From: a phage
Sequence record: PV805632.1
Length of the DNA stretch: 64,000 nt
Strand: one strand, 5' to 3'
A program made the position numbers and the translations under genes. Positions 41,572 through 60,805 of this stretch are shown piece after piece; position 1 is the stretch's first letter; each line of letters starts with the position of its first letter. The notes beneath the pieces were generated by a model. The model made no database searches, was not told the DNA's origin, and worked only from the letters and a program-made list of their open reading frames with translations.

Positions 41572-42086
41572 AGCACCTGGTTCAAAGTTAGTAGGTGTGA
41601 ATGTAATGGGGGAACTCCATCTAAGGAGGTCATAGTGATTACATTAGTATCTTCATCAATGTCTATGTCGAATCGTTCCATGATTCGACTTGGGGCATTC
41701 TCATAAAGATACTGATCACACCATTGCTCAAAGTCAGCAAAGCCAATCTCTGCTGCCTGAACATAGACAGATTCTCCAGCAGGTGGGGTAATTTGATCCT
41801 CTATAACAGTAGGGTCAATCTTAGCCAGTACACCTAACGAAGAACCTGCCATACCAACTTCTGAATCATAGTGATTCTTACTCCAGCTAGAAAACAGTCG
41901 CATACGTATACCAGGCCCCTTCAGATAACTATCAGAGATAGTGTCTGCCATAGTGAATCCTGTATCAGCAACAATCTTACCGATGACTACAGTCTTCATA
42001 TAGTTTGGACGCTTGTGTATATCCCCTGCCATGTTATAGACAGAGGATGCTACGTATACTTTGGTCTTACTACTGAATAAGCCCAT
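41514..42086 (-). CDS. virion structural protein, N-terminal part (possible frameshift at GGGGG 41607-41611)
   Basis: 190-aa ORF overlapping the 711-aa ORF by 58 nt in another frame. Confidence 0.45.
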   Translation of the reverse strand: MGLFSSKTKVYVASSVYNMAGDIHKRPNYMKTVVIGKIVADTGFTMADTISDSYLKGPGIRMRLFSSWSKNHYDSEVGMAGSSLGVLAKIDPTVIEDQITPPAGESVYVQAAEIGFADFEQWCDQYLYENAPSRIMERFDIDIDEDTNVITMTSLDGVPPLHSHLLTLNQVLCISMLITRSISPRLPIHR

Positions 42087-42087
42087 A

Positions 42088-42930
42088 TTAATTCAGCCCG
42101 TTGTTAATCTTCAGCTTGGACAAAATGGTATCAATACTTGCGTTGGTGAAACCATTAGGTGGGTTCAAGCCTTCATCAATAGTCTTCTGTGTAATCCATG
42201 CATCAGTAAACAGCTTAGATGCTTTAACTTCTGCATCACGTTGGTAAGAAGTAATCTGTTGAGAGTACAACTCTTTCTGCTTACCTACGGAACCCCTAAC
42301 GGCTGCACCGTCTGTACGAGTATCCAATGTCTGTGCACGTTGTGCCTCAGTCTGCTCAGTAATCAGTTTAAGCTGTTGAGGTAACATCTGGTTAGCATTA
42401 AACAATGCAGCACAGTATGTTTCAGACTCAGTAGCAATCTTCATCTTAGTGAGGGCATATTCACTTTTAGCAGACAGTGCCTGAATCTTAGCCAGCACAT
42501 ACTGAGCTTTAGAAGTAGCCAATGTAACACGAGCAGTAACAGCCTGAATCTGTGCCATAGCAGCAGCCCAGTATGCTTGGTCACGACCAAGTAAGAACTG
42601 AACAGCATTACTCATGCATGATTCCATCATGGCAATATAGGCTTTGGTATATTCACCACCAGTAATACGGTTAGCTTTAAACTCAGCTTTAAGATGGTTG
42701 TGTGCAGATTCCATTAAAGCATCAAACGTACCGCTACCACCCACTTCACGGGTAGTAAGTGATTCATTAGTTACTTTAGTAATAGCATCAAAGATTGGGG
42801 AATCATCTCCACCAGGGATATCCCATTCAGGACCAGACATATCAATGTCAGGGAGGGTAAAGTCATCACCCTTTGTTAACTCTTCTAGGAGTCGGTTAGC
42901 TTCTACCTCAGCAGAACAAGACATAATCAT
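42088..42930 (-). CDS. hypothetical virion protein
   Basis: 280-aa ORF in the structural operon. Confidence 0.45.
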
Positions 42931-43000
42931 TCCTCTTGGTTCAAAAAGAAACGGCCCACGGAGTTACCCCAGTGAGCCGTGTTGAACTGTAGCTTATACG

Positions 43001-43642
43001 TTAATCGTTCAGGCTACCAGCAGCAATCTGTGCTTGAGCCAGTTGAGCCAATTCTGCTTCAGTCAGCGGAGGCAATACTTCAATGGAGAACTCACGTGCT
43101 TCTGTTGCACGGATATCCGGTAAGCCATTCTTACCTTTACGAGTCGTAATGTTGATGAACTTACGCTCTTTAAGGAACTCGTAGATACAGTACGGAATAT
43201 GATAACCATTGTCGGTGACTTCACCGAACGGAACAAACTTACGTACAGTACCCATATATTCGTTAGCTACGGTGATAATCTCACCCGGCAGGTCTTTCTT
43301 CTTAGGATCAAGGTTCTGGATACGTACACGAATCAGTCGAGTCTGCTCTGCACGAATCTTCTGACCCAGAGTCATCTTCTTAACACCAGCTTCCTGTTTT
43401 TCACCCAAAGGGTTAACAGCAGCTTCTTTTACTTCTGGTTCATCTTTTGCTTGTGCAGCTTCAATCTTCTCACGGAGTTTCTCAACGGAGATGTTGTTAG
43501 AGAACTTAATATTCATCAACGTTGCACGTTGCTTAAGAACCTCAAGTTCGCTAGGCATTGCAATATCGTTAACGGTATCTTCGTTGCCCTGTACGTCCAG
43601 TTCTACGCCAGTGGTCGGTTTATCGTTAATGCTCATGTTCAT
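43001..43642 (-). CDS. hypothetical virion protein
   Basis: 213-aa ORF downstream of the capsid gene. Confidence 0.45.
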   Translation of the reverse strand: MNMSINDKPTTGVELDVQGNEDTVNDIAMPSELEVLKQRATLMNIKFSNNISVEKLREKIEAAQAKDEPEVKEAAVNPLGEKQEAGVKKMTLGQKIRAEQTRLIRVRIQNLDPKKKDLPGEIITVANEYMGTVRKFVPFGEVTDNGYHIPYCIYEFLKERKFINITTRKGKNGLPDIRATEAREFSIEVLPPLTEAELAQLAQAQIAAGSLND

Positions 43643-43672
43643 ATTTCCTGTGGTTCAACTAGTTTTATTAAG

Positions 43673-43692
43673 AGGGGGACACTAGTCCCCCT
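43673..43692. terminator. hairpin downstream of the capsid gene (attenuator/terminator-like)
   Basis: AGGGGGAC-ACTA-GTCCCCCT (8-bp stem). Confidence 0.4.
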
Positions 43693-43709
43693 TATTTTAT
43701 TTAGGACTA

Positions 43710-44912
43710 TTACAGAGGAGCAACAGTCTTAATCAGAGCCAGACGTTCCGGACGTTTAACCAGGATACCGTAGTACCACTTGATGGAGCTGAAGCCAGTC
43801 TCACCATACGGGTCATTACGGTCAGCAGTTTCTCGACCAGGCATCTTAGTCATGATGGAGAACTTAACAGACTTACCATCAGTCTGGAAGCCAATGGTAG
43901 AGAAGGAGTCATCACCAACTACCAGCATCGGGAATACGTCGTAGTGTTCTTGACCACTAACCATAGAAGAACGGTAACCTGGGTTAGTAGAGACTTGAGC
44001 ACCAGCACCTGCCCAATGCAGCATCTCAGGAACCTGGATAATACGGAACTTGTCGATACAACCAATCTCACCATTCATCAGAGTACCAGCATCAGCATAG
44101 TGCTGAACCTCGATGAATGCTTTATTACCGAACAGATCTTTCATCGCTTTCAGTTCTGGAACCAGTTCAGAACCAACGTACATTACACGAGTACCACCAA
44201 GTACTTTGGTATCGGTAAGTTTAGAGCCAGTGATGATAGTAGTCTGAGTCGGAGTACGGTTCTCAGTAAGAATCTGGTCAAGACGCATCAGGTTCTTATA
44301 AGAAACTACAGACGGGGTAGCACCTTCACCAGTGATGGTAGCATCGGAGGTAGCAGCACCTGCATACAGTACAGTACCAGCAGCAGCCAACAGGTCTTTC
44401 TGGAGAACAGCTTCAGTCAGCTGTACAGCACCGTTCATCAGTTCGCGAGACAGGTGTTCTTTCAGTTGGTCATCAGAATCAAAGTCCAGGGACTCTTGAG
44501 TAAATTCGTAGAAGAAACCAAACTTATGAATGGAACCTTCACGAGACAGACGGGTAAAGCCTACACGGTTAACACGACCACCGTTCTCTGTCAGCAGAGG
44601 CAGTTTAGAGGTGATGTTACCAACGTCTCGGGAAGAACCATACAGGTTACCGTTAACGATGGTAGCACCATTAGCATCAATACCCTGGTCGTTGATGTTC
44701 TTATCGTCAAGCAGTGGAACGTACTCATACACCTTAACAGTCTTACCATAGTTCTTCGGCATGTTAATGGTGTTAGCCAGTGGCATGAAGTACTGGTCTT
44801 TACGGGACTGAATAATAGCTTTCTTCAGCCAGTAATAGGTATTCATCTGGTCGGAACCAGCACCATCAATGCTAGATTTCTGGCCGTCAATTGGGGCGTT
44901 ATAGTTTAACAT
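43710..44912 (-). CDS. putative major capsid protein
   Basis: 400 aa, between scaffold-like gene and terminator hairpin; size and position match the N4-type major capsid protein; not motif-verified. Confidence 0.6.
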
Positions 44913-44928
44913 ATCATCTTATTCCTGT

Positions 44929-46161
44929 TTAAAGACTACCCGGTACTGGGAGTTTAGCGAAATCTTCATCACTCATGGCGAGTGGGTTTACAATAGGTGT
45001 TGCTTTACGTGTAGCAGCCCGATTAAGGGAAGCTGCTTTAGCTTGCTCACTGTTAGCCAGAGTCTGCTTAGGTTGTGCTACTCGCACTACCGGCTGAACC
45101 ACTGGTTTAACTGCTTGTACCGGTTCTGGCTTAGCTACTCGGTTAAATGCCCCCTGCTGTGCAAGGAGGTTACCGACGTGGTTATAAGCCTGAATGAACG
45201 GAGTACCTACCGGAATCTGGCCTAACATCTGAAGACGGTTCACTTCGTTTGCAATGGTGTCATAAATACCATTCTCACGTTGTTCGTGAATAGTCTGGAG
45301 TAGGCCACGATTCTGGTAAAGAGCTTCTTTACTGGCAGCATCCCATGTCGAGCCGATAACACCTAATGTAGCTTGTCCTTCTTGAGTAGACTTTAAGTCG
45401 TCAATTTCGGTTGCAAAATCTGCTTCGGTGTCGGTAACACGGTGATTGCCACCCTGGTAGTTAATTTCCTCATCTGGGTTAAAGTCCAGAGGATCTGTAC
45501 CAGAGTCTTTGAGCAACTTCTTAATGGCTTCTGGATTCTTTTTATCCAGGTCAATCAGGAAGGAAAGTTTATCCTCATCCATTAAACCGTTGTTCTGTAA
45601 CATCAGCATTACCTTACGGTAAGGCTTCAGTTCTTGCATCTTACGAGTATAGTTAGCACCCATCTGCATCAGGCTAATGGCCTCCTCCGGTGAACGGGGA
45701 GTAATCACTTTGCCGTTAGCTTTAAAAGGAGCCATCAACTTCTCGTAACCTTCCTTATAGTTGAAGTCAGCAGGCAGACCTTCAGACTGTTTGCCTTCTT
45801 CTTTCTGTTCCTGGCCTAGTTCAGTAGTAGAAGGTTCAGCTTTAGTAATCGGCTCACCGTTACTATCAACTTCTGTGTCAACAACTTTATCAACAACTTT
45901 ATCATCAACTTTATCAGAAGTTAAAGAATTTGCTGAATCTTCTTCATCAGGTTCGGCTTCAGGGGGGGTTTCTTCGGTTGGTAGGTCTTCAACAGCAGGA
46001 GTGTCAACTTCTTCTTCAGGAGTCTGTACGCCGTTGGTTTCTGGGTTGTTCTGAGTGGAAGTATCTTCCTCAGCAATAATTGCTGGGGCTTCCATATTCA
46101 GAATCTCATCATCCGACATTGCGAGAATGTCGGAAGCTGTGGTTGCAGCTTCCGTAGTCAT
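44929..46161 (-). CDS. putative scaffolding protein (acidic, low-complexity N-terminus)
   Basis: 410-aa ORF directly upstream of the capsid gene; E/D/T-rich. Confidence 0.4.
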   Translation of the reverse strand: MTTEAATTASDILAMSDDEILNMEAPAIIAEEDTSTQNNPETNGVQTPEEEVDTPAVEDLPTEETPPEAEPDEEDSANSLTSDKVDDKVVDKVVDTEVDSNGEPITKAEPSTTELGQEQKEEGKQSEGLPADFNYKEGYEKLMAPFKANGKVITPRSPEEAISLMQMGANYTRKMQELKPYRKVMLMLQNNGLMDEDKLSFLIDLDKKNPEAIKKLLKDSGTDPLDFNPDEEINYQGGNHRVTDTEADFATEIDDLKSTQEGQATLGVIGSTWDAASKEALYQNRGLLQTIHEQRENGIYDTIANEVNRLQMLGQIPVGTPFIQAYNHVGNLLAQQGAFNRVAKPEPVQAVKPVVQPVVRVAQPKQTLANSEQAKAASLNRAATRKATPIVNPLAMSDEDFAKLPVPGSL

Positions 46162-46180
46162 AGGAAATATCTCCGGTTAA

Positions 46181-46525
46181 TTATTCGTCTTCAGGTTCAG
46201 CACGAACTGCGTCGAGTTCTTCTTCTACCTGTAGAATAACGTCAGCTTCGTTTTCGCCCATACGAATGGCAAGATCAAGCCAACGACGTAAGTGACCAGC
46301 AGCTTGAGCCATGTTCAATGCATCTGCACGGTTATTAGGTTCAAGCAGTGGGTCACCAGACTCTTGCACGTAACGTGCACAATCTTCCGTACAGAACTGG
46401 CGAAGAATTACTTTACGGAACAGTGGATTCTCCAGAAGTTTACGTACATCTTCTGCATGTGCAACTGCACCTTTAGCAGCTTCCAGTCGATGTTCCAGTC
46501 CAGCGATTGTTGATTCTTTACTCAT
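46181..46525 (-). CDS. hypothetical protein
   Basis: 114-aa ORF between portal and scaffold-like genes. Confidence 0.45.
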   Translation of the reverse strand: MSKESTIAGLEHRLEAAKGAVAHAEDVRKLLENPLFRKVILRQFCTEDCARYVQESGDPLLEPNNRADALNMAQAAGHLRRWLDLAIRMGENEADVILQVEEELDAVRAEPEDE

Positions 46526-46538
46526 GTGAAGGTCTGCC

Positions 46539-48809
46539 TTACAGGTTCATGCCAAGAGCCGATGCTGGGTCTTGGCTAGGGTCATAGTATTGGGAACTAA
46601 GTGAATAAGCTGGGTCTTGCTGAGCAGCTAAATCCCGTTCTGGTATAGAGTTCACGTTAGTCAAAGTATTATATCCAACAGCTGCAGATATGTTGGGGGT
46701 AGTTTCCCCTTCTTTAATAGGTGTTGTCAATGCCTTAGTTATCTGAAGGTTCTGGTTTCCTTGGGATTGTGCTTTTTGTTTTTCCATATCACGAGCATGT
46801 TTAGTACCAGATTCCTGTTCCAGATAATCCAGGTCTTTAAGGTCACCACTGGAAGCAGCCTCTTTAGCCTTAGCCATATTGAGTGCAATCTTACTTTGTA
46901 ACTCTTCATTCTCAAGCTGTGCTTTCTGAATTGCCAATTGCTTAAGCTGTTCTTCCATAGGGTCTGGCTGTGGTTGCCAGGTACGTAACTCATGAGCCAG
47001 GTCGGGCATACGTTTAAGTTCTGCAATCTTAGCTACGAGAGATAACGTAATAGTTTGGTCAACCGTATTACCCAATGTTTGAACCATGAAGCTCAAGTCC
47101 TGGGATTTCTGGTTATCAATTTCAGCAGTGTTGATATCAACCTCAATATCGAAGTTACCTTTAAGGTCTTCACGGTTAATCTCTACATACTGCTCGTTAG
47201 TAATACGTACTACTTCTTTCTCAGATAAGAACACAGCATTCATTGCACAAATCTTAGTACCAATGTCTGCCATGCCCTTAGCTAATCGGCGAAGGATTGC
47301 CATCTCACGTTTGGATGCTGCATCAAGTGCACCACGAATACCGGCAGCCACTTCCCCGTATGCTGAACCAGTTACACCACCAGAGAATGCTTTAACACCA
47401 GTTAATGATTCAGCTTCCTGGTTTTGCATCTGGGTCATTATTATTGCCGACTGAGGTAACTCAGGGAACTTATGTTCCATAATGGCCTGACTAGGATTAC
47501 CCTGCATTGGGTTGTATTCGTAGTCTTGCCCATCGTCATATCGACGACGGTTTAGTGTATCCAACATCCCTTTAGGATAACCACGTTGACCGTTTGCACT
47601 TCGACCTAACAGGTCAATCATCCCACGCATAGTTGCACCAAGAATTGCTTGGTTATCCCCTAACAGTTCAGCATCAGCTTCACCGAAGAGTTCGCGTTTA
47701 CGGGGCATGTAAGGAACAACTACTAAAGGTAATTTACCGTCAGGGAATGGGTTCCTCTCCATACGAATAAGAGTAGAACCAATCCAGGTAGCAACAATAG
47801 GTTCCAGAGAACCATCATCATTGATGTCGTAAAATCCCCAGTATTCGTAGGCAACAACTTTCTTACGAAGTGCATCCTTAAACTGAAAGTCACTTGGAGT
47901 CTTACTTTCATGGTCTGGGTCGGTCATAGGGCTAGAACTTTCCCAGTCAATCTTATCTAAATTGTGATAACGATCTTTGTTCTTCATGAGGTCTGCTTTG
48001 CATGTCTCAAAGGAGATAACTGCATACAGAGCCTTATCCAAATCACCGTTACAGCTTGGGTCAATAACTACGTTATTAGGGTTAAGCATTTCAACGGTAG
48101 GTCTGTTAACTAGTGCCTTCTCTACTTCTACTTCAGTAACTCCAGTCTGGATTGCATAGGTAGCTTCCCCAGTTTCATTAAAGTAGTTAACAGCTTCCTT
48201 AATATCTTCCGGCATTGTCTCATCGTACTCACGAGGATTCTCTGCCTGAAGCTGTAAAGCCTGTTGAAGAACATCTGCTTGTTCCTGGTTCTCGATTGGA
48301 TATAACTGGAAGACTGGTGTTTCTGTTTTAATCTTAACAGTCTTACGTTCCCAACCAATACGAGCAATACCAGTACCGTCATCTACAACACTGTGTACGT
48401 AATCATCCACCAGTTTTACTTTATTAAGCTGGGTACGAAATTGGTAGTTAAGAACTAATTCATTCTGTCGTGCAGCTAACTCATCCTCAAAAGTAACCGG
48501 AGTTACTTTAAAGAGCTTATTAGATGAGAGGAATGGCTCAGACAATGGAGCATATCGCCACTCTGCCTGACGGCGAACCAGTCTGGGTTGGACTTGTGAG
48601 CGTCCCTTAACCTTTGGGGGTTTAGCCTTACCTTTAACTTCCATCAGGTCATTCCACTCACGAATCTGAGCCATAATTGCATCGTGAGCAGGTTTAGCCG
48701 ATTCCAAATCACCCTTCAGTAATTGGATACTTGGTTCCTTCTTCCAGTCCGTTAGCTTCTCTGATTGAGCTGGGTCTGGTAAAGGCTTAAAAGTGTCTTG
48801 GTGTTCCAT
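46539..48809 (-). CDS. putative portal protein
   Basis: 756 aa; size and position (upstream of scaffold/capsid) match the N4-type portal; not motif-verified. Confidence 0.6.
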
Positions 48810-48817
48810 AGTTAATC

Positions 48818-49345
48818 CTATTCAAAAAGTTTACGGTCAGCCTGAATTTGTTTACCCAACTCAATTAGTTGGTTGTCACGGAGTCTAACAGTTGCCCGGA
48901 GTTCTTCAACCAAACGTCTGCCTTCTTCAAGACTGTTGTCGAGTCTGGCTGCATGGCTTGCAAGACTTCTGCACTCAAGGGTTCCGGCTTCGGCTTGACG
49001 TTTATATACCGATGCTCGTCTTTCAGACTGTTGCATCCGGCTGTCGTAATCACTGCTAACGCGAGCAAGCTCGCTTGCGTAATTACTCTCAGCCGTCTGC
49101 AACCTAGAGGTGAGTATCCCGACTTCATAACTATGGTTTCTTTGGAGAGCATTGTATTTGTCCTGTATTTTTTGTGTTGCCTTCAGGTCTTCGGCTTTTT
49201 GGGCATCCCACTTCTTTTGAACAGTAGACTGTCCATTGGAATTGCCCCAAAAGTAAATGGTGGCCCCGAGGACCACCACCAGAAGATAAGGCCAACCTTT
49301 AGAGATTAGCATCTTCATTACATGCCTCCAGTGGTACATTACCAA
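48818..49345 (-). CDS. i-spanin (Rz-like): N-terminal TM helix plus periplasmic coiled coil
   Basis: TM segment [16 protein letters not shown], charged helical remainder; a later Met (49318 or 49312) may be the true start. Confidence 0.55.
48865..49128 (-). CDS. o-spanin (Rz1-like lipoprotein) embedded in another frame of the i-spanin gene
   Basis: signal peptide plus lipobox LAVITTAGC, Pro-rich mature part; fully embedded in 48818..49345. Confidence 0.5.
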   Translation of the reverse strand: MKSGYSPLGCRRLRVITQASLLALAVITTAGCNSLKDEHRYINVKPKPEPLSAEVLQAMQPDSTTVLKKADVWLKNSGQLLDSVTTN

Positions 49346-49934
49346 TTCGGTTAGCTACCCAACCATACGTAAAGTCTGGCATGTTCAATGAGGTGTAGTG
49401 GTTCAGTTGTTTAGCATCGAGTAACTTAATCATTACCTTACATGCTGCAACTTTGCCTCGTTTTTTCTGTAATGCTTTATATGCATTAACAGTACCTGCA
49501 CCGACTTTACCATCAACTTGTATTTTAGGGTAGTCTTTGCCATCACGGGACATTTCATTAAGAGATTGCTGCAACCACTTGGCTGGTCTGGTTACACCAG
49601 TGTTAACACCAGCATCAACCAGTTTGTGTGTTACAGCAGGAGATATATCAGCGAAGGCTACGAAGTTAGGCTTAATAACGTAGTCATCAATGTATATCTC
49701 AGCAGCCATCTCTTTAGATAAACCCTTCATGGAACCATCCCAACCATACTCAGTAGCCAGAACTTCTTTATGAGACTTAGCTACTGATTGGGTAATACCA
49801 TGATTAGTTTCCCCACCCGGGTCACGAGGATTGTTTACGTACCCTCCTTCCATATAGAACACTGCCCCCAGAATAGCAGCGATAACTCCTCCCACTGCAC
49901 CCCCTTTTGCAGCAAGTTTCTGTTTAGCTTTCAT
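49299..49934 (-). CDS. endolysin: GH108 N-acetylmuramidase with C-terminal peptidoglycan-binding domain, possible SAR N-terminus
   Basis: YMEGGYVNNPRDPGGETNHGIT matches the GH108 catalytic motif; Gly/Ala-rich hydrophobic N-terminus GGAVGGVIAAILGAVF. Confidence 0.8.
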   Translation of the reverse strand: MKAKQKLAAKGGAVGGVIAAILGAVFYMEGGYVNNPRDPGGETNHGITQSVAKSHKEVLATEYGWDGSMKGLSKEMAAEIYIDDYVIKPNFVAFADISPAVTHKLVDAGVNTGVTRPAKWLQQSLNEMSRDGKDYPKIQVDGKVGAGTVNAYKALQKKRGKVAACKVMIKLLDAKQLNHYTSLNMPDFTYGWVANRIGNVPLEACNEDANL

Positions 49935-50184
49935 GAGAATCTTCCTTTGGATGGAATCGTATTAGTCTGCCTACAATATTTAAGGCAAACAGTGCGATTG
50001 TAATACTGGAACCATGGGGAATATATTCAAGGATGTGACGTGGTAGTCCCGTCAACATTGGTTGGATAATATCTACTGTAGAAAACAGAATTAATCCAAA
50101 TGCACTAATCTGAACAGATGCCCACTTCCAGGACTTCTTCCAGTTAGGAACTAGCCCTATTTTTCTTTTTAGCTTGTGAACCAT
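49924..50184 (-). CDS. putative holin (two TM helices; possibly a pinholin if the endolysin is SAR-type)
   Basis: start taken at internal Met MVHKLKRK; two hydrophobic segments; directly upstream of endolysin. Confidence 0.45.
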   Translation of the reverse strand: MVHKLKRKIGLVPNWKKSWKWASVQISAFGLILFSTVDIIQPMLTGLPRHILEYIPHGSSITIALFALNIVGRLIRFHPKEDSHES

Positions 50185-50501
50185 GCGAATATCTCCCGTC
50201 TTGCAGCAGCCAATACACCAATAATTGCACCTGCACCAGCCCACACCCACTTACCAAAAATTCCAGCACCTGCAACCTTATGTTTAATGGTGATGAACTC
50301 TTCGATGGTAGGTTCAGACTTAGTGATGCTCTCCTCTACCCGTCTAAGTCGGGTACTAAGATCACCCATAGACTCGCTTAGCTTTTTAATAGACTCATCC
50401 ATTTTCTCCCTTTCCCTCGATTCACGAGTTTGGTTTTCGAAAATGTTTCTCAGTCTCTCTTCGAGTCGGGCTAGAGTTACGTTATCTGGTTCATTTCCCA
50501 T
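50169..50501 (-). CDS. membrane-anchored coiled-coil protein (lysis-associated?)
   Basis: 110 aa, charged helical N-terminus and C-terminal TM AGAGIFGKWVWAGAGAIIGVLAA. Confidence 0.4.
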   Translation of the reverse strand: MGNEPDNVTLARLEERLRNIFENQTRESREREKMDESIKKLSESMGDLSTRLRRVEESITKSEPTIEEFITIKHKVAGAGIFGKWVWAGAGAIIGVLAAARREIFAWFTS

Positions 50502-50577
50502 AGGGATTTTCTCAGGTTAGTTAAGTCGTAATTGACTGAAACAGTCTACATAAAGGTTTGATTGGGGTACAACAAAA

Positions 50578-50598
50578 AAGCCCCTCCCTCATGGGCTT
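50578..50598 (-). terminator. rho-independent terminator (second of a tandem pair)
   Basis: minus strand AAGCCC-9 nt loop-GGGCTT followed by TTTTTTGTT. Confidence 0.55.
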
Positions 50599-50631
50599 CG
50601 AAGATTAAATACTTTTTCTGATGATAAAAAT

Positions 50632-50649
50632 AACCCCGCCGAAGCGGGG
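50632..50649 (-). terminator. hairpin terminator CCCCGC-TTCG-GCGGGG (18-nt element also present at 53258-53275)
   Basis: minus strand hairpin followed by TTATTTTTAT; exact 18-nt repeat of the element upstream of the gene. Confidence 0.55.
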
Positions 50650-50677
50650 CATAATTTTAGTTAACTGCTATGCCAGA

Positions 50678-53233
50678 TTAGCCCACATTACCAATAGTCA
50701 TGCTGTACTCAAGAGTAAATAACTGACTAGAAGCAGACGTGTTATATAATCCTACATAACCAGATGTAGCTACAGTAGTAGAGAATGCAGACGTAGTTGC
50801 CGTGCCATCATCTGACTCTACGGTAAAGGTATGAGCACCAGTAGAGGCGGAAGTATATTCCCATACTTTAAAGCCTTTATCTTCACGAGTAGTATCACCA
50901 AATACTACCCAGTCAGTTGGGTTAGTATTGTTGAACGTACCGATGCACATATTACCTGCAGCATTCACACCGACTAACACACCAACATTAGTAAGTGGGT
51001 TATAGTTAAGTGCAATATAGGTGTTTTTCTTAAGACCTTTCGGTACAGCCAGATAACCTACAGATGCAGCATTATAAAGGTGAGAGTCTGCGGTTTTACT
51101 GAACTGAGTACCAGACAAAACTTCACCAAATACACCATAGTCATTGGCGTTAGACTGCTTCATTACTGGAGCAGGGCGGGTCATGTTAGGTTCTTTGCTA
51201 AGACGAACCATCGGCAGCTTAACCCCATCCGTTTTGTAAGAACCAAACTTCAGCATAGGGAAGTAAGCATCAGTAGGACTACCATCAATGATATAACGGA
51301 TAAAGTTCAAACCTTTACGTAATCGCCCCATATAGGTAGTAAGGGTTTTGCCACCCCCAAAGTAACTCATGGCAGTCTTGCCATTAAGCACGGTACGGTA
51401 GGCATTAATTTGAGTATTACGCTCTTGGTATTCACCGGACTCAATCAATGCTTTGCCCGCAGGAGACTCAACACGGATGTTGTGCTGTTGCCCAACAACG
51501 GCAGCATTAGTCCATGGTTCTAGAAGGGATACAGTCATACCTTCTTCTTCACACCATACCATTGTGGTCATGGTTACATTTTCATTAGTTACACACTTAG
51601 ACAGAAAACGGAATACGTTCAGAGCAGGAGCACCAGATACAGGTACATACTGTGGTGCATAGTGAGTACCGGAAGGATACCCTACACAATCCCAATAGTT
51701 TTCTACAGCAGCCTGAGTGATCATATCCCCCGGTCTAACACGACGACAGTACTTATTACCAAGGGTCTGCATATACATCGCATTACCCATAGCCATTTGT
51801 CCAAGTTCTTGTGGGTGAGTAGTATCCCAGGTTCCATCCTTCTTAACATAGTAGTAGTACCCAGTTTGCTCATTGCGGCTACTTGCACTAGTCAGATTTG
51901 GTCCCAAGTTAAAATACTCAACACCTAGTTTATCTGCCATGTACTTCTTAGTACTAAGCTCAAATGCCATACGTACTGAGTCATTATCGTTGACTGTTAC
52001 AATACCAACAGCACAACCGTAGCCCCATGCTTTACGAACAAACTTGTCAATCTGGTCACGGTAGGTAGCGATACTAGCACTACTGTCATTCCAACCCATT
52101 GCAAGGATACATACACGAGGAGCTTCTGCACCATAGCGTGTGTTACCGAAGAACCCACGGTCGAAGTTACGATAGCCCCAACCGTCGGATAACTTCTTAC
52201 CAGATACGGAACAGTTAGCTGATTGGTAAATAGTTTCACCACTACGACGAGACTGTGTGAGCAACAAGCCATTCATCCAGTGTTCAGTCCATGAGTGGGA
52301 ACCTCCAGATAAAGAATGATTGTATGTACTTGGGGCATCTAAGTCACCATCTGAGTTAGTTGGCGGAGAACTCCAGTCCTGTTTACCCCATGCACCATCA
52401 GTAATGGAATCGCCAATGATACCGATACGACAAAATGTCTGGTCACGGAATGCACAGTATATTTCGTCATTAACGGTTTTATTGTTACCATTCATTGAAG
52501 CAGCAATGTCAAACGTATGGTCCTTTGCATACCACTGGTTTTTAACAATAAGTTTGCCTTCCCCAACAAACTTACGGACATCATCATCGGGGAGTAAGTT
52601 ACAACGAATGGTAACACCCTTAGGGATAAAGATTTTACCGGGGAAAGCATAAGCAGCTGCACGGTTATCCGTAGTAGTATTAACAACAATACCAGGAACA
52701 TCATATACGGAAGTAGAACCAACAGGAGGAATTAGACCACTGTTTAATTCTTGTCGTATTAATTCATCATTAGCAATAACCCATGCAGTGGGAGAAATAC
52801 CACCTGCACTAAACGGAGTAGAGTTAAGTGGTACGCTCTTGGGTAACCCACCAGCCCAGCGATACTGCGTGCCATTATGAGTAAGCAACTCATTCTTGGT
52901 CTGTATAACTGAGCCAGAAGTAAACGTATCCGGTAAAGTTACATATTCTTTGCGAGTAACAGCTAATGCACCTAAGTCCACGCTACCAGCAGAGTGAACT
53001 AATACACCAGCAGGGCTAAGGCTTATAGCAGTAACACCTGAACCAATGTTAGCAGGTAAGGAATAAGCACGTTGTGTAGCTTTGTCATAGATGACTTTGT
53101 AACCAGTAAGCAGAGCACCCACTGAGAAGTAAACAACCTCAGATTGTTTAACCCCAAAGTGACGTGCTATTGCTTGTTTATTGGTTAGGATTCCTGTTGA
53201 ACCCTTACCGCCTTGTGAGAACATTTCGTTCAT
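50678..53233 (-). CDS. tailspike protein with SGNH/GDSL esterase domain (probable O-antigen/capsule deacetylase)
   Basis: all four SGNH blocks in order: GDSIT, SLSGGSHSW, AMGWNDS, TWDTTHP; 851 aa; in G7C-like N4 phages an SGNH tailspike deacetylates O-antigen (from memory). Confidence 0.75.
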   Translation of the reverse strand: MNEMFSQGGKGSTGILTNKQAIARHFGVKQSEVVYFSVGALLTGYKVIYDKATQRAYSLPANIGSGVTAISLSPAGVLVHSAGSVDLGALAVTRKEYVTLPDTFTSGSVIQTKNELLTHNGTQYRWAGGLPKSVPLNSTPFSAGGISPTAWVIANDELIRQELNSGLIPPVGSTSVYDVPGIVVNTTTDNRAAAYAFPGKIFIPKGVTIRCNLLPDDDVRKFVGEGKLIVKNQWYAKDHTFDIAASMNGNNKTVNDEIYCAFRDQTFCRIGIIGDSITDGAWGKQDWSSPPTNSDGDLDAPSTYNHSLSGGSHSWTEHWMNGLLLTQSRRSGETIYQSANCSVSGKKLSDGWGYRNFDRGFFGNTRYGAEAPRVCILAMGWNDSSASIATYRDQIDKFVRKAWGYGCAVGIVTVNDNDSVRMAFELSTKKYMADKLGVEYFNLGPNLTSASSRNEQTGYYYYVKKDGTWDTTHPQELGQMAMGNAMYMQTLGNKYCRRVRPGDMITQAAVENYWDCVGYPSGTHYAPQYVPVSGAPALNVFRFLSKCVTNENVTMTTMVWCEEEGMTVSLLEPWTNAAVVGQQHNIRVESPAGKALIESGEYQERNTQINAYRTVLNGKTAMSYFGGGKTLTTYMGRLRKGLNFIRYIIDGSPTDAYFPMLKFGSYKTDGVKLPMVRLSKEPNMTRPAPVMKQSNANDYGVFGEVLSGTQFSKTADSHLYNAASVGYLAVPKGLKKNTYIALNYNPLTNVGVLVGVNAAGNMCIGTFNNTNPTDWVVFGDTTREDKGFKVWEYTSASTGAHTFTVESDDGTATTSAFSTTVATSGYVGLYNTSASSQLFTLEYSMTIGNVG

Positions 53234-53257
53234 ATAAACCTCTTTGTTTTTCTAAGA

Positions 53258-53275
53258 AACCCCGCCGAAGCGGGG
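53258..53275 (-). terminator. hairpin CCCCGC-TTCG-GCGGGG between the two tail fibre/spike genes
   Basis: identical to the 18-nt element at 50632-50649; followed on the minus strand by TTTCTT and an AAAGAGG RBS. Confidence 0.5.
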
Positions 53276-53280
53276 GTATT

Positions 53281-56200
53281 CTACCTGATAATGAACTTAC
53301 CGAGGCTAATATCATTTATCAAAGTTGCTACTATGTTTGCCAGTTGGGTGGTTGTTAACGTGTTCACATCACCACCACGCAACTGTCCGGCGTTGGTGAA
53401 CGGGAACTGCTGAGGCTGAGCGCTATTGTAGAACTGGTTACCCTCTTCATACCGAGAAGACGGCGTAGAAGTGTAAAGGATTCCTTTAGTAGTCGCAGGA
53501 ACAGAACAATTCACGATGTTTACATGACCAGCGATGCCAACGCACTCGATAGGGCGATCAACAGTACCAAACGGTTGAACACCAACCAGGCGATGCACGT
53601 TCAAGCTCTGAGCTGCCTGCGCGTACAGATAAGAACTAGGCTGCCCGTTAACACCTCTGATGTTCCAGTTATCCACTTCAATATGACGGGCATTATGAAT
53701 CTGACAGATTGCTTGACCGTCTGCATCAGGAAATGCGCCAACAATACGCACGTTCTTCATAGTGATGTCGGAAGTAGCTGTTGCGTTCAACCCGCAGTTA
53801 ATCATAACAGCTTTAGACCCAGATTGTGTGCAGTGGATTGTTAACCCATCGAATTCAATATCACCTAGATTTACCGTGTGAGAGGATCCATCCTTACGCA
53901 AAAAGAATACAGCCCAATCTGTGTGACCTGTTATTAAGATATTACTAAATCGCAGGCGTGTGCAGACTACCGGATAATATCGACAGAGGATTGGCTGTGA
54001 ACAATTCTTGATTGTGATGTTGTCATACGTGACATCACTGGAACCCTCAATCGCAATACCCGCATTACATGCTTCAATGTAAGCACCGGTCACACTTCCG
54101 TTGGTGAAGTTTGCGCGGATGCCATGCGATTCACAGTTCTTAATTGTTACGTTGCTAATGTTGACGCGAGTAATTGCAGTACCATTACCGCCGCCAACAC
54201 CAGTAACCAAATCGTCAGACTGAAGACGCAAACCGTTACCGCCGGATCCATTAATACTAATATCATGAATCATCACATTAAGCGTGCGACCGGGACGTGT
54301 TGAAGTCATAAACACAGAAGATGCCCATGTGTCTCTAGTACGGATATGATGTATATGTGCTTCTGTTGCGTTCCCAACAATAATCGCCATACCCTGACGG
54401 TTGCTGCCGTCCGGCTGTTGGATTTGTCCACGCCCACAATCGTGAGAATACAGGTTGTTTGCAAGCGTCCATCTACCATAATCCATTGTTACGTTGCTAT
54501 TCCATGCCCCCTGCAATTCACACCCTGAAAGCTCAAGCGTACCAGCAGATTGCATAGCCAACCCAACGCCAGGGTCAAATGACGCATCCTGTCGGTAGAA
54601 ATCAAAAAGGAAGTTACCGACAATGCGGATGTCATAAGGGGTATAGTCATATTCATTGTTTGTATCATTCCATGTTCTCGGTGAACGCAGCCAGAACTGA
54701 CGCGAATCTACCGTCACTTTCGGTAATAGCGGTTTGAGGTGAATATCCCCCTGGATGGTGAATATACCCTCAACTGTAACCGGTGAATAGCCAATGTAAA
54801 TATTACCTGCCTTTGGTAGTAGGCGCGAAAGCTGCGCATCGTTCTGCGCAATCTTCCAGCCAGTGATCACTTCGTTGAAGAACGAAGCCGGATATAGCTC
54901 GTGAGCGCCGTTAATGACGGTCTGGTCGAAACTGGTGACTGTCACAGATGACGTAAGCGCGGAACCCAACATCATCAGATTGCCACTCACCCTGACAAAC
55001 AGTACTCCTGACGGAATAACATCACCGACAGACAACGAACGGTTATTTTCTGTTGGGAAGCACGAACCACCGTAAAAACCTGATGGTATGTTGGTGGTAA
55101 AACTATTGTATTCTACCCAGGCGTTTGCCGATACTCCGCCAGTATTTATCGGCGTAGAGTTAGCCCCCACTGTTTTTGGTAAGGTTCCACCCCAGGCGTA
55201 GCACTGACCAGCAGCAACATGCCATACGACATCTAATTTGCTAGTAACTGTTGCACCCTCCTCAAAACTACCATCAACAAGCGTTAAGCCAGCCTCTGCA
55301 AGACTACGACGCCATAGTTCTCTGGTATTTCGCTGTTGGTAGGAATCCAGCAGAGTAACAGTAATATTTCCGGGGGAATAAGTTAACTGCCCATTGGAGA
55401 CAGCGTTGATGTAAACATTAGTAGGTAGAGTGGGTAACCCATAAATGTGTTGTGTAACTACATCATAAATTACCTTCTTACCATTAAGTACCTGAGTAGT
55501 ATCCGTACTAAGGATTACTTCAGAATCTTTTACGTTAGCTGCACGAGCCACTTCCTGAATAGTGTGGTCTGTTATTTCAAGTACCTTAGCTTCACCGCCC
55601 AACTGAACAATAAGACGGTCATTGGTTGCCAATGGTTCAGTAAGAAGGATTCGGTTATTGTCTGAGTCAATCGTATAGGAGTTATTAGTTAACCCTTTAT
55701 GGAAACGTAAACCATTCTTGTATACAGCAGGTACAGACTGGAAAGTGAAAGGAATATCAATTACCTGCTCCCCACCAACAGCAGCACCATGATTGTACAA
55801 CCAGTTAATAGTTACCCAGTCGGATACGTTAGGGTTATCCGGTGTAGCAGGAACACCTGTACGCATAACAACAACAAAGTCACCCTGCTCCAGTGGAGTA
55901 GTAAACTTAATCTCAAAAGCTACTGGGTCATACTCAAAATCGTAACCCTCAGTCTGCCAATCACCATTAACAATCATAAATGGTGCACCAGCCGTCTCAT
56001 CTGGGATACGAATGGTAGTCTCACCACCATTAGCTGAACCAGAGTTATAAACCCAAGGGATATACCCACCACCATTGGTGGACTCACCACCACTTCCACC
56101 AGTACCGGAAGTAGCTACCTTAACCCATGAACCAGTTGCAGTAGTATCATCTGGTAGGATACCGGTACGATCACCATCTACGTACAAATAGTCAGTAACC

Positions 56201-56481
56201 TGACGGTCACCTGCACGGGAGAATCCGTAGATACGGGCATACTTAGCATCAGCAGTAAGAGCCTTAAGTTCAGCCTCAGATTGTACGCCAATAACCATTC
56301 CATATTGATTCAGAAAATCATACAGGAGTTTCAGGTTACCCAAATTACAATACACAGTTCGGACTACGTGGTAAGCATTACCAAGTAGTGCGTCTACCAT
56401 TGGGTCGTTGGATTTATTCTGGCAGTAAGGATTGGACCAATCCTGATTTGCATCGAAGGGGGTATGTGCGTTCATCGCCAT
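53281..56481 (-). CDS. tail fibre/spike protein with right-handed beta-helix (pectin-lyase-like) repeats
   Basis: 1066 aa; G/N/T/S-rich repeats (NISNVTIKNCESHGIRANFTNGS, DNITIKNCSQPI); upstream of the SGNH spike. Confidence 0.65.
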   Translation of the reverse strand: MAMNAHTPFDANQDWSNPYCQNKSNDPMVDALLGNAYHVVRTVYCNLGNLKLLYDFLNQYGMVIGVQSEAELKALTADAKYARIYGFSRAGDRQVTDYLYVDGDRTGILPDDTTATGSWVKVATSGTGGSGGESTNGGGYIPWVYNSGSANGGETTIRIPDETAGAPFMIVNGDWQTEGYDFEYDPVAFEIKFTTPLEQGDFVVVMRTGVPATPDNPNVSDWVTINWLYNHGAAVGGEQVIDIPFTFQSVPAVYKNGLRFHKGLTNNSYTIDSDNNRILLTEPLATNDRLIVQLGGEAKVLEITDHTIQEVARAANVKDSEVILSTDTTQVLNGKKVIYDVVTQHIYGLPTLPTNVYINAVSNGQLTYSPGNITVTLLDSYQQRNTRELWRRSLAEAGLTLVDGSFEEGATVTSKLDVVWHVAAGQCYAWGGTLPKTVGANSTPINTGGVSANAWVEYNSFTTNIPSGFYGGSCFPTENNRSLSVGDVIPSGVLFVRVSGNLMMLGSALTSSVTVTSFDQTVINGAHELYPASFFNEVITGWKIAQNDAQLSRLLPKAGNIYIGYSPVTVEGIFTIQGDIHLKPLLPKVTVDSRQFWLRSPRTWNDTNNEYDYTPYDIRIVGNFLFDFYRQDASFDPGVGLAMQSAGTLELSGCELQGAWNSNVTMDYGRWTLANNLYSHDCGRGQIQQPDGSNRQGMAIIVGNATEAHIHHIRTRDTWASSVFMTSTRPGRTLNVMIHDISINGSGGNGLRLQSDDLVTGVGGGNGTAITRVNISNVTIKNCESHGIRANFTNGSVTGAYIEACNAGIAIEGSSDVTYDNITIKNCSQPILCRYYPVVCTRLRFSNILITGHTDWAVFFLRKDGSSHTVNLGDIEFDGLTIHCTQSGSKAVMINCGLNATATSDITMKNVRIVGAFPDADGQAICQIHNARHIEVDNWNIRGVNGQPSSYLYAQAAQSLNVHRLVGVQPFGTVDRPIECVGIAGHVNIVNCSVPATTKGILYTSTPSSRYEEGNQFYNSAQPQQFPFTNAGQLRGGDVNTLTTTQLANIVATLINDISLGKFIIR

Positions 56482-57182
56482 CCTCGTTGTTCAAATTTAG
56501 TTTCGGTAATTGAAATACTTCCATTAGCCAGGTCGTAATCAACAACCTCACCACAGATGCTTTCATACGTTTGCAGATACTCTGCTGCTTTAGCGTTAGC
56601 TTCAGGAGTATTCAAACCAGTGTGGTAACGATAACCCACCCAGTTATGAAGTGCCGTCATTAGCGTATCAGTTAAATCAACTTCCTGTTCTTCATCACCC
56701 GTAAGAACTGGGTGCTTAGCTTGATACGTTACGTTAAGTGCCTCGAAGTGTCGAGGTCGCATACACTGAATAGTATCAGGCCGTGGGGTGAAAATAGCAT
56801 GAGGGTCTGAATCGTCGTTCAGTCTACGTCGATTCCCCGAGTTATCAAACACATTTAAGATTTTAATAACATCATCCTGGAAAGGTTTCATGAACCCATC
56901 CATGATGTACGGATATTGAACCTCAAGAGTAGGCTTAGTAAATTTGGAGTAAGCATATTTGGATTGAAGAGGGTAATCAGTACGCCCTTCCTTCATCTCC
57001 ACAATGCAGCTATTTGTCTTAAGAGGGAAACGACTATGCAGTCGTACCAGTCCTTCATTAATAGCAGCCAGTATCTCCGGCTTACTATCTGGTTCAATAT
57101 CTAGTCTGTCATCCGTGACTGCACCAGTACCTTTTAAGGTACTTAGTGCTAAGCCTCGGTATACTTCCGATAATTTCTGCAT
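56472..57182 (-). CDS. hypothetical virion/tail protein
   Basis: 236-aa ORF between terminase and tail fibre gene. Confidence 0.45.
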   Translation of the reverse strand: MQKLSEVYRGLALSTLKGTGAVTDDRLDIEPDSKPEILAAINEGLVRLHSRFPLKTNSCIVEMKEGRTDYPLQSKYAYSKFTKPTLEVQYPYIMDGFMKPFQDDVIKILNVFDNSGNRRRLNDDSDPHAIFTPRPDTIQCMRPRHFEALNVTYQAKHPVLTGDEEQEVDLTDTLMTALHNWVGYRYHTGLNTPEANAKAAEYLQTYESICGEVVDYDLANGSISITETKFEQRGWR

Positions 57183-57188
57183 GGTTCC

Positions 57189-58799: not shown

Positions 58800-59460
58800 G
58801 TACTAGTTTAGAACCAGCAATCTCTTTAGTAGGTACACCACTATTGATTGCATTAATTTGCTGTTCAGCCAATGCAGCAAGCGTTGCCTTGAGGTCAGTC
58901 AACCCAGAGTTTTCTCTTAAGTCCAGATTGATATTCGTTACCTGATCTTTCGGTTTAGCTAAGTGGGTAAGGATAGAGTTAGCTGCATCACATCTTACCT
59001 TCTCACTTACCGCTGTAGTCATCAGTTCAACCTGAACATTGATTGCCTTCTGATAGTTGTCTTGGTTCACAATCCACACCGGAACCAAACTTTGTTCCAT
59101 GATGAGGTTAACTAACTTACCTCTGTGATAAGCAGATACGTAAGCACTAATATCTTTCTCACTGGTTCCTCGAGCTACAAGTTCTGCTTGTCGGTTAGGG
59201 AATGTTTTGAAGTAGGCTTCCTTATTTGAATAGCCCATGTGTTTGTAAGTCACATACTGAACTGCATTCATGTAGTCCTGTGTCTTAAACTTACCCTCCT
59301 TCATAACACCAGAGTAAGAGATGAAGTTTTCACGGAATGCTTCAGCAACCAGTTGGTCTTGGGTTATGTTGTTAATCGTGTCTACCAACTCCTGGCTTAC
59401 ACTGTTCTTGAAGTTAGCAGGTAAGGCATTAATGATCTGCTGCTTAGTTAGCTCTCTCAT
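58771..59460 (-). CDS. hypothetical protein upstream of terL (possible small terminase subunit)
   Basis: 229-aa ORF overlapping the terL start; positional guess only. Confidence 0.35.
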   Translation of the reverse strand: MRELTKQQIINALPANFKNSVSQELVDTINNITQDQLVAEAFRENFISYSGVMKEGKFKTQDYMNAVQYVTYKHMGYSNKEAYFKTFPNRQAELVARGTSEKDISAYVSAYHRGKLVNLIMEQSLVPVWIVNQDNYQKAINVQVELMTTAVSEKVRCDAANSILTHLAKPKDQVTNINLDLRENSGLTDLKATLAALAEQQINAINSGVPTKEIAGSKLVRADEDITDV

Positions 59461-60802: not shown

Positions 60803-60805
60803 GGT

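Follow-up and report, generated by a model that had tools for sequence, protein, structure and literature searches.

The minus-strand region 50501..48818 of the analysed DNA (sequence record PV805632.1; its entire 64,000 nucleotides are referred to as the window) is the ordinary five-gene lysis module of an N4-family coliphage that is almost identical to phage G7C. Five tightly overlapping genes were found where an initial annotation had placed them. Comparison with the N4-like coliphage vB_EcoP_G7C (Gamaleyavirus; HQ259105) revealed 97.5% nucleotide identity over the entire 2.1-kb query, and the gene order of the 64-kb window is collinear with that of G7C. The same genes, gp63-gp62-gp61-gp60/gp60', are present in G7C with the same order and overlaps and a few amino-acid differences, and all five, including the embedded one, are annotated in its GenBank record. 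The minus-strand order first proposed, i.e. a membrane-anchored coiled-coil protein, a two-TM holin, a GH108 muramidase and a spanin pair, agrees with the experimental dissection of N4 lysis and with the GenBank annotation of G7C, Bas96 and Mimir124, which share the gene order, the GH108 muramidase and the embedded spanin pair. The suggested comparison with annotated N4-like lysis genes matched the five genes in order and type, and another 10 Schitoviridae, from six host genera, have the cassette in the same order beside their portal gene. The cassette is therefore already known, being annotated in G7C and having characterised orthologues in N4. With high confidence, the region can be regarded as a multigene lysis cassette expressed late by an N4-family, G7C-like podophage of E. 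coli, and the cassette would operate by the N4-type mechanism.

The N4 cassette has an orthologous architecture with 55-80% protein identity. Identities to N4 gp63, gp62, gp61 and gp60 are 60, 55, 71 and 58%, respectively; for the mature o-spanin and N4 gp60a the value is 80%. From this orthology with tested N4 genes we infer every functional step in the present phage. The gp61-type endolysin would be exported via Sec and tethered in an inactive form to the inner membrane by a weakly hydrophobic signal-anchor-release (SAR) helix, while the gp63-type protein would build up in the inner membrane and open small holes at a set time, which would dissipate the membrane potential. The SAR helix would then leave the membrane, allowing the GH108 muramidase to refold and to degrade peptidoglycan all round the cell. 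The gp62-type two-TM protein would serve as an accessory holin-like regulator and, as the last step, the i-spanin and the outer-membrane o-spanin would disrupt the outer membrane after loss of the wall. The same logic of a small-hole holin, depolarisation and release of a tethered endolysin is employed by S21/R21 of phage 21, with which there is no sequence relationship. The functional evidence stems from one preprint on N4 (10.1101/2025.11.12.688109, Awuah et al., bioRxiv), whose proteins are 55-71% identical to those encoded here. Control of lysis timing may differ in the present phage because lysis inhibition is reportedly absent in G7C and present in N4.

Transmembrane (TM) segments and lipoprotein signals were called by hydropathy and a PROSITE-type pattern, respectively, and AF2 models were generated from single sequences, so that their TM parts are of low confidence. 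Related loci were collected with a conserved 24-nt DNA pattern, which yielded 35 useful loci; the i-spanin used by itself as a query led only to near-identical phages, and a GH108 alignment led mostly to non-N4 phages.

The first gene of the cassette (50169..50501, minus strand) encodes the 110-residue orthologue of N4 gp63. Hydropathy analysis identified a single hydrophobic stretch (residues 76-108), and the AF2 model contains helices at residues 10-61 (pLDDT >90), 66-78 and 83-109. A long cytoplasmic helix is followed by the 'Receiver' motif (PTIEEFITIKHKV), which is conserved, and by a C-terminal TM helix rich in Gly. It aligns without gaps to all 110 residues of N4 gp63 (60% identity); the two proteins share an identical Receiver motif with T65 and T71, and the stretch PTIEEFITIKHKV.GAG.FGKWVWAGAG equals that of N4 except for conservative changes. 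The N-terminal ~55 residues are divergent, and the alternative start Met17 of N4 gp63 is replaced by Leu17. The protein thus fits the N4 gp63 type, which is defined by a length of ~110 residues, a variable N-terminal helix, the Receiver, the Gly-rich C-terminal TM helix and the first place in the cassette. Across 13 Schitoviridae, positions P64, K73, K75, G78, A79, G80, G83 and W87 are invariant. The timing of N4 lysis is set by gp63 acting as a pinholin, whose small lethal holes let out SAR endolysins but not soluble ones (10.1101/2025.11.12.688109). N4 gp63 complements the S21 pinholin and not lambda S105 (10.1101/2025.11.12.688109), and can be deleted only if compensating mutations in the SAR domain are acquired (10.1101/2025.11.12.688109). 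The orthologue described here is probably a tail-anchored pinholin and the lysis trigger. Its description as a membrane-anchored coiled-coil protein was appropriate as to the helical structure and the C-terminal membrane helix, and the N4 gp63 data refine its role to that of the probable trigger.

Database searches assigned the 110-residue protein to phrog_5211, a family of unknown function; in Pfam, PHROG and NCBIfam no curated family of known function was matched, the remaining hits were coiled-coil noise, and no holin family was matched in Pfam or NCBIfam. Membership in the S21 pinholin family does not hold, since a single C-terminal TM helix is found instead of two and a holin-family match is missing. 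S21 has two TM helices, one of which is itself a SAR domain, whereas the gp63 type combines one C-terminal TM helix with a long cytoplasmic helix; the protein may work like a pinholin yet stand outside the S21 family. A relationship to XhlA-like 'hemolysin' proteins was also dismissed, as phrog_1193 was matched with an E-value of 0.001 only and Pfam XhlA matched neither the window protein nor any of the 13 homologues. A weak match to DUF1515 was observed for four of the 13 homologues (best E-value 0.0011). Homologues in F22, ST4, phi G17, Moonfish, Moo19, HN03, Fifi287, Holyagarpour and PB119 carry the name 'tail length tape-measure protein', which would make the protein a virion component. 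This reading is extremely improbable for a protein of 110 residues that has a C-terminal TM helix, is located in a lysis cassette, lacks any tail-family match and has a lethal membrane pinholin as its N4 orthologue. The product name seems to have spread from record to record as an artefact of the coiled coil.

The second gene (49924..50184, minus strand) encodes the 86-residue orthologue of N4 gp62. The presence of TM segments in the holin candidate was confirmed, as two hydrophobic segments were detected (residues 21-48 and 54-79). The protein matched PF25612 (DUF7940; E-value 6e-15, 56 bits against a cutoff of 27) and the PHROG family phrog_1356, labelled 'holin' (E-value 1.3e-29). The conserved start of this type is ATG 50184, preceded by a GGGAG Shine-Dalgarno sequence, while the mechanically called open reading frame (49924..50250) begins with GTG and comprises 108 residues. 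This longer form was rejected because the 22-codon upstream extension is closed by stop codons in five of 14 relatives and GGGAG is conserved before ATG 50184; for N4, a 109-residue form of gp62 is mentioned (10.1101/2025.11.12.688109).

The initial designation as a two-TM holin was correct about the two TM segments, but the holin label follows a database habit and experiments in N4 make gp62 dispensable. N4 gp62 is described as a non-essential lysis regulator with late, triggerable holin activity (10.1101/2025.11.12.688109), which kills cells after addition of CCCP and releases lambda R late (10.1101/2025.11.12.688109). These activities could also be taken to mean that the two-TM protein is the true holin and the 110-residue protein an accessory antiholin or timing factor, in agreement with the class-II-like two-TM topology, the phrog_1356 label and the name holin in most GenBank records. 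Moreover, G7C reportedly shows no lysis inhibition, so the roles might differ from those in N4. Such an exchange of roles is nevertheless unlikely: N4 lysis is unchanged without gp62, whereas loss of gp63 demands the compensating SAR-domain mutations; prompt complementation of S21 is achieved by gp63 and not by gp62; the TM and Receiver regions of the gp63 type are far more conserved than gp62; and in Delftia phage RG-2014 a gp63 homologue is present while gp62 was not detected. By orthology, the gp62-type protein is best viewed as a predicted accessory holin-like lysis regulator.

The third gene (49299..49934, minus strand) encodes the 211-residue orthologue of N4 gp61. Matches above the Pfam cutoffs were obtained for GH108 (PF05838; E-value 1.1e-19, 71.1 bits against 21.2) and PG_binding_3 (PF09374; 32 bits against 24.6), and a PHROG endolysin family was matched as well. 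The E29-G-G-Y and DPGGETNHG sequences correspond to the family motif EGGY...DPGG.T.HG, which is invariant in 10 homologues, and the protein is a predicted GH108 N-acetylmuramidase. Residues 8-27 (AAKGGAVGGVIAAILGAVFY) contain 11 Gly or Ala among 20 positions, the maximal Kyte-Doolittle hydropathy over 19 residues is 1.79, four lysines (K2, K4, K6 and K10) precede or flank the helix, and the catalytic-motif Glu29 (EGGY) follows directly after it. The protein thereby has the sequence features of a SAR endolysin, namely a weakly hydrophobic Gly/Ala-rich N-terminal TM helix with a basic flank, and this type of N-terminus is kept across Schitoviridae. N4 gp61 is a SAR endolysin for which tethering to the membrane and release, without a holin or upon depolarisation, have been shown; it complements R21, lyses cells slowly on its own and causes rapid lysis when altered by G12E (10.1101/2025.11.12.688109). 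A glycine (G15) is found here at the counterpart of G12. The N4 gp61 enzyme, whose muramidase activity towards peptidoglycan has been demonstrated, goes back to Stojkovic and Rothman-Denes 2007, as cited in 10.1101/2025.11.12.688109. R21 is a T4-lysozyme-type enzyme, unlike the GH108 orthologue. The earlier proposal of a GH108 muramidase with a Gly/Ala-rich N-terminus that is possibly a SAR endolysin was thus strengthened by the Pfam matches, the residue composition and the N4 data, and membrane tethering followed by release is predicted for the protein.

Many GH108 proteins do not have SAR domains, and this is the one general point in favour of a soluble cytoplasmic muramidase that would need a large-hole holin, with its N-terminal stretch being either a cleaved signal peptide or devoid of a role. 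In addition, the PDB relatives 6v3z (Sen1395) and 6v40, which are Salmonella type 10 secretion muramidase relatives, are bacterial proteins and not phage endolysins. They match the catalytic and peptidoglycan-binding domains (E-values 3e-27 and 4e-20) from about residue 20-24 of the gp61 orthologue onwards and leave the SAR-type helix uncovered. A soluble enzyme is nonetheless very unlikely given the SAR-like composition, the lysine flank and the directly adjoining catalytic motif, a feature conserved across Schitoviridae; furthermore, N4 gp61 pairs with a pinholin, lyses slowly when alone and triggers rapid lysis after charge insertions into the helix.

The spanin pair completes the cassette. 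The i-spanin, orthologous to N4 gp60, is encoded at 48818..49318 (minus strand, 166 residues); the mechanically called frame begins at TTG 49345, and the likely start is ATG 49318, which has GGAGG 7 nt upstream. It matched the Rz-like spanin family phrog_6197 (E-value 3e-77), and in Pfam only a sub-threshold match to DUF2514 was obtained. An N-terminal TM helix (residues 1-23) is followed by a periplasmic domain with two long helices (residues 32-110 and 116-165; AF2 pLDDT mostly 78-92). The o-spanin gene (48865..49128, minus strand, 87 residues), orthologous to N4 gp60a, lies wholly inside it in the +1 frame. Its signal peptide ends at the lipobox TAGC with Cys32, which leaves a mature protein of 56 residues, as in N4, and the +2 residue is Asn and not Asp, in line with sorting to the outer membrane. 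The signal peptide is longer than that of N4 (32 versus 16 residues). A lipoprotein signal for 48865..49128 and an i-spanin with an entirely embedded TAGC lipoprotein had been predicted; both were borne out by the PROSITE-type lipobox, by its presence in all 16 loci examined and by the suppressed synonymous variation described below. The Shine-Dalgarno sequence of the o-spanin gene is weak, and the start may be 49128 or ATG 49152 (95 residues). Bas96 annotates the o-spanin with the same extent, and the mature protein is identical (100%) to that of G7C. The 123-residue embedded gene of G7C, which begins at an upstream ATG, was not adopted, as the extension is closed by a stop codon in the window and in Bas96 and the maximum here is 95 residues; this stop supports the short 87-residue form used by Bas96.

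The weak Shine-Dalgarno sequence and the lack of a matching model in Pfam, PHROG and NCBIfam could suggest that 48865..49128 is a chance open frame, in which case the i-spanin alone would be made and disruption of the outer membrane would need another factor. A +1 open run of at least the observed 105 codons was also obtained in 3.7% of permutations of the i-spanin codon order. Such a reading has hardly any probability, as the lipobox Cys and the mature sequence are kept in all 16 phages and conservation is higher in the mature o-spanin than in the i-spanin. All 16 of the 16 Schitoviridae loci examined keep the +1 frame with its lipobox and mature sequence, the mature length being 56 residues in 12 of them, although i-spanin identity is as low as 37% among these phages. 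In comparison with N4, the mature o-spanin (80%) exceeds its host i-spanin gene (58%). At i-spanin codons with identical amino acids, synonymous differences from N4 amount to 19% in the overlap and 61% outside (Fisher p 7e-5), which stands against a chance frame, and both overlapping frames are under purifying selection. Only two open reading frames with a PROSITE-type lipobox were found in the six frames of the 64-kb window, the second being a 67-residue ORF that lies within the virion RNA polymerase gene in another reading frame. N4 gp60/gp60a complement lambda Rz/Rz1 (10.1101/2025.11.12.688109). A chance origin of the embedded lipobox frame is excluded. The pair resembles Rz/Rz1 in the N-terminal TM helix and two periplasmic helices of the i-spanin and in the o-spanin lipoprotein being wholly embedded in the +1 frame, but belongs to another sequence family. 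In 14 of the 16 family members the mature o-spanin contains no Cys beyond the lipidated one; without a second Cys, an Rz1-type intermolecular disulfide cannot form.

The cassette shares its strand with the tail-fibre and portal genes that flank it, and a gap of 8 nt separates it from the portal gene. A terminator scan identified an intrinsic terminator at 50633..50650 (minus strand; GCCCCGCTTCGGCGGGGT then TATTTTT), which follows the tail-fibre gene gp63.1 and delimits the cassette on its upstream side. G7C lists the same palindrome as a repeat_region, and the records of phages SPSP and Pokken place a terminator ahead of their gp63 homologue. With this strong terminator in front of it, the cassette is more likely to stand at the head of a transcription unit than in the middle of one. 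Its reported position inside the structural operon therefore holds for the neighbouring genes and the strand, but probably not for a place within a continuous unit. Between that terminator and gp63, a sigma-70 scan of the minus strand detected no promoter; inspection by eye noted TTGTAC-18-TAGACT upstream of gp63, which matches at 8/12 positions only.

A second terminator-like element was found inside the i-spanin codons for the TM helix. The hairpin (49256..49280, minus strand) consists of an 11-bp stem and a 3-nt loop, followed by the U-rich tail UUUACUUUU, and is positioned 18 nt past the stop codon of the endolysin gene. Its minimum free energy is -25.6 kcal/mol (z -4.0), and it is more stable than all of 500 synonymous recodings. 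In an alignment of six Enquatrovirinae sequences, 98.5% of the cells are paired and compensatory double changes occur in four of the 11 pairs. A 'terminator' is annotated at the hairpin in the SP5M and SPSP records. Homology of the hairpin could not be demonstrated beyond Enquatrovirinae. Roughly half of the lineages further away lack a hairpin, and hairpins in Kaypoctavirus and Achromobacter phages are 1-5 nt out of register. A search of the literature on transcript maps of N4-like coliphages found nothing bearing on the hairpin, and a covarying terminator-like hairpin at this site may be a new observation. A function as an intrinsic terminator or attenuator, or as a stabiliser of RNA 3' ends, is proposed tentatively and is somewhat unlikely on present evidence. 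The plasmid experiments with N4 genes would miss the hairpin because they employed lambda Q-modified, terminator-resistant transcription. If functional, the hairpin would divide the cassette between two transcripts, one for the pinholin, the regulator and the endolysin and a read-through one for the spanins and the portal protein, and would set the ratio of wall-degrading products to outer-membrane-disrupting and structural products, possibly in dependence on i-spanin translation. In that case an RNA structure and the amino-acid sequence of the membrane helix would have evolved together, a small example of mutual constraint.

As a discovery, the lysis cassette carries little weight, and its practical value lies in annotation. 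The embedded o-spanin is missing from many N4-like records, the gp63-type pinholin is widely mislabelled as 'hypothetical' or as a 'tail length tape-measure protein', and it is the dispensable gp62 type that is named 'holin'. For the biology of the family, G7C-type phages provide a natural comparison for the question of what signals lysis inhibition in N4, because they carry a Receiver motif identical to that of N4 yet reportedly do not show lysis inhibition.

The lysis cassette proposed in the initial annotation is correctly placed on the minus strand, where five genes with short overlaps occupy 50501..48818; only the start codons differ. The first gene (50169..50501) encodes a 110-aa protein orthologous to gp63 of phage N4 and is followed by the genes of an 86-aa gp62-type protein (49924..50184; 16-nt overlap with the 110-aa gene), a 211-aa gp61-type muramidase (49299..49934; 11-nt overlap with the 86-aa gene) and a 166-aa gp60-type i-spanin (48818..49318; 20-nt overlap with the muramidase gene). 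An 87-aa embedded ORF (48865..49128), the o-spanin, lies entirely within the i-spanin gene in the +1 frame. The 86-aa and 166-aa proteins were assigned to ATG 50184 and ATG 49318 and not to the GTG 50250 and TTG 49345 of the mechanical ORFs; the 22-codon upstream extension from GTG 50250 is shut in 5 of 14 relatives and was rejected. The cassette had been described as lying inside the structural operon, and its neighbors are indeed the tail-fibre gene gp63.1 (50678..53233) upstream, which carries domains specific to Escherichia phage vB_EcoP_G7C, and the portal gene (PF23899; 46539..48809, minus strand), which starts 8 nt past the end of the 166-aa gene. However, a strong minus-strand terminator (50650..50633), with annotated equivalents in phages SPSP and Pokken, separates the tail-fibre gene from the gp63-type gene. 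A promoter scan revealed no convincing promoter for the cassette. A 16-nt palindrome, CCCCGCTTCGGCGGGG, occurs once on each side of gp63.1 (50634..50649 and 53260..53275); both copies are a repeat_region in the G7C annotation, and terminator scoring picks out the former on either strand.

The presence of this cassette is already known, because the near-identical phage G7C (HQ259105; Schitoviridae, Enquatrovirinae, Gamaleyavirus) has been annotated and the N4 orthologues have been characterized. The 2.1-kb region matches 161 phage records and is 97.5% identical to G7C over its full length. Collinearity with G7C extends over the entire window, at about 95-97% identity and in circularly permuted order: positions 262..61650 correspond to G7C 9307..72225, followed by a wrap to G7C 7..3290, and the terminal repeat occurs only once. 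The G7C HNH homing-endonuclease genes gp24.1, gp41.1, gp47.1 and gp2.1 are absent from the window, which has two inserts of its own, at 24972..25598 (a 212-aa ORF, phrog_17779, unknown function) and at 62779..63295. The G7C record lists gp63 as hypothetical, gp62 as putative holin, gp61 as N-acetylmuramidase, and gp60 with the embedded gp60' as putative Rz/Rz1 spanins. These entries, the Bas96 o-spanin with exactly the extent proposed initially, and the embedded o-spanin marked by hand in Mimir124 all agree with the proposed cassette. The gene order beside the portal gene is also found in ten more distant Schitoviridae, and the proteins belong to N4 families (GH108, the gp60/gp60a spanin family, DUF7940 and the gp63 family).

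The muramidase is 71% identical to N4 gp61, the founding enzyme of GH108. Its reading as a GH108 enzyme with an SAR-type (signal-anchor-release) N-terminus is supported by GH108 and PG_binding_3 matches exceeding Pfam cutoffs, a single N-terminal hydrophobic stretch (residues 6-34, hydropathy) and the EGGY catalytic motif (E29) immediately after the SAR-type helix. Rapid-lysis mutations of N4 gp61 cluster in this helix, including G12E (preprint 10.1101/2025.11.12.688109), and the G12 position corresponds to G15 here.

Hydropathy also supports the two-TM topology of the 86-aa protein, which matches DUF7940 (hydrophobic stretches 21-48 and 54-79). The 110-aa protein has a single C-terminal hydrophobic stretch (residues 76-108), and its single-sequence AlphaFold model comprises a confident helix 10-61, then helices 66-78 and 83-109. 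The two-TM protein had been named the holin and the coiled-coil protein left without a role, but N4 experiments point the opposite way. Rapid-lysis mutations cluster in the conserved 'Receiver' region of N4 gp63, e.g. T65I and T71A, and N4 gp62 has some holin-like activity (preprint 10.1101/2025.11.12.688109, Ramsey laboratory). T65, T71 and the entire motif PTIEEFITIKHKV are shared with N4 gp63; overall identity to N4 is 60% for gp63 and 55% for gp62. Conservation across the family points in the same direction as these experiments: gp63 hardly varies in its TM and Receiver half, whereas gp62 is much less conserved, with no homologue detectable in Delftia phage RG-2014. The lysis-cassette interpretation is supported overall, with the roles of these two proteins refined. 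The gp63 type is not a member of the phage 21 S21 pinholin family, since it has one C-terminal TM helix and no sequence match to S21; an XhlA-type link prompted by a weak PHROG hit was unsupported on checking.

The pinholin-type gene is itself interrupted by a mosaic junction, which affects its 5' half (~50340..50501) and the region upstream. Compared with Mimir124-type Gamaleyaviruses, the first ~170 nt of the gene are 40-60% identical and the remaining cassette ~93-95%, and in many records similarity starts at query position 350-365 (~window 50336-50351). From this break, the N-terminal cytoplasmic helix of the pinholin appears to travel with the variable tail-fibre module. Lysis inhibition is reportedly absent in G7C (cf. 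preprint 10.1101/2025.11.12.688109), although the 110-aa protein and N4 gp63 hardly differ in the Receiver motif and TM helix; differences lie in the N-terminal ~60 residues, including Leu17 in place of the N4 alternative start Met17, and A60T adjoining the Receiver region. GenBank records of relatives often name the 110-aa homologues 'tail length tape-measure protein', which looks like a propagated coiled-coil artefact, and a 'RIIA/RIIB lysis inhibitor' label on the cassette region of Klebsiella phage record OY979416 suggests shifted feature coordinates.

The i-spanin is 58% identical to N4 gp60, with an N-terminal hydrophobic stretch (residues 1-23, hydropathy) and, in a single-sequence AlphaFold model, the two long helices (32-110 and 116-165) of Rz-type i-spanins. 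The embedded arrangement resembles that of lambda. As proposed, the embedded ORF encodes a predicted lipoprotein: a PROSITE-type pattern ends at Cys32 (lipobox TAGC, Asn at +2), leaving a mature protein of 56 aa. The ORF has no match in Pfam, PHROGs or NCBIfam. The length of the open +1 run alone is not striking, since 3.7% of codon-order permutations of the i-spanin gene attain its 105 codons. Only two lipobox-signal ORFs exist in six frames of the 64-kb window, the second (33268..33468, minus strand, 67 aa, MVIVGRVHGCLLMVLWLVLMATISAC..., +1 frame of the 3759-aa virion RNA polymerase gene) being taken as chance background of the scan. Sixteen Schitoviridae loci were compared, from phages of Escherichia, Shigella, Klebsiella, Achromobacter, Burkholderia, Erwinia, Stenotrophomonas, Pseudomonas, Xanthomonas, Alcaligenes and Delftia. 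All 16 contain a +1-frame ORF with signal peptide and lipobox Cys inside the i-spanin gene, 12 of them yield a mature protein of exactly 56 aa, and the conserved blocks are NVKPK..PL, LQAMQP.ST and one of 17 residues. The mature lipoprotein is conserved more strongly than its host gene (80% versus 58% identity to N4; 46% versus 37% to the Alcaligenes phage). Among i-spanin codons with unchanged amino acid, synonymous differences amount to 19% inside and 61% outside the overlap versus N4 (p 7e-5), and 17% and 57% versus Axy11 (p 2e-4). Purifying selection acts on both frames. The lipidated Cys is the sole cysteine of the mature o-spanin in 14 of 16 members (loci L001-L023), so that an intermolecular disulfide of the kind known for lambda Rz1 is impossible there. 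The motif (E/Q)C..LASHAA provides most of the 16 i-spanins with a Cys, which is missing at that position in Holyagarpour, QDWS595 and RG-2014.

Within the i-spanin TM-helix codons (LVVVLGATI), 18 nt past the endolysin stop, lies a minus-strand hairpin (49280..49256; 11-bp stem, 3-nt loop) followed by the U-rich UUUACUUUU. Its MFE is -25.6 kcal/mol (z -4.0), and none of 500 synonymous recodings of the encoded peptide reaches its stability. In N4, Moo19 and two metagenomic relatives, a hairpin built from other stem sequences occupies exactly this register; pairing holds in 98.5% of cells, with compensatory double changes in 4 of 11 pairs (six sequences, a small related sample), compared with 42-61% in controls shifted by 1-3 columns. 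Hairpins are a few nucleotides out of register in Klebsiella and Achromobacter relatives and missing from roughly half of the lineages at greater distance. In the SP5M and SPSP records this site bears an automatically assigned 'terminator' feature, and a literature search on N4-like coliphages found no transcript mapping testing it. That this candidate is an attenuator between the holin-endolysin and spanin-portal parts of the unit is conceivable, though rather doubtful.

From the N4 results, the shared T65, T71 and PTIEEFITIKHKV, the corresponding G15 and the position of E29 directly after the SAR-type helix, we infer by orthology a pinholin/SAR-muramidase/spanin sequence in this phage. The muramidase would start membrane-tethered and inactive, the 110-aa tail-anchored pinholin would depolarize the membrane, the muramidase would then be released and activated, and the spanin pair would act last to disrupt the outer membrane, following the same logic as the pinholin, SAR-endolysin and two-component spanin of phage 21.
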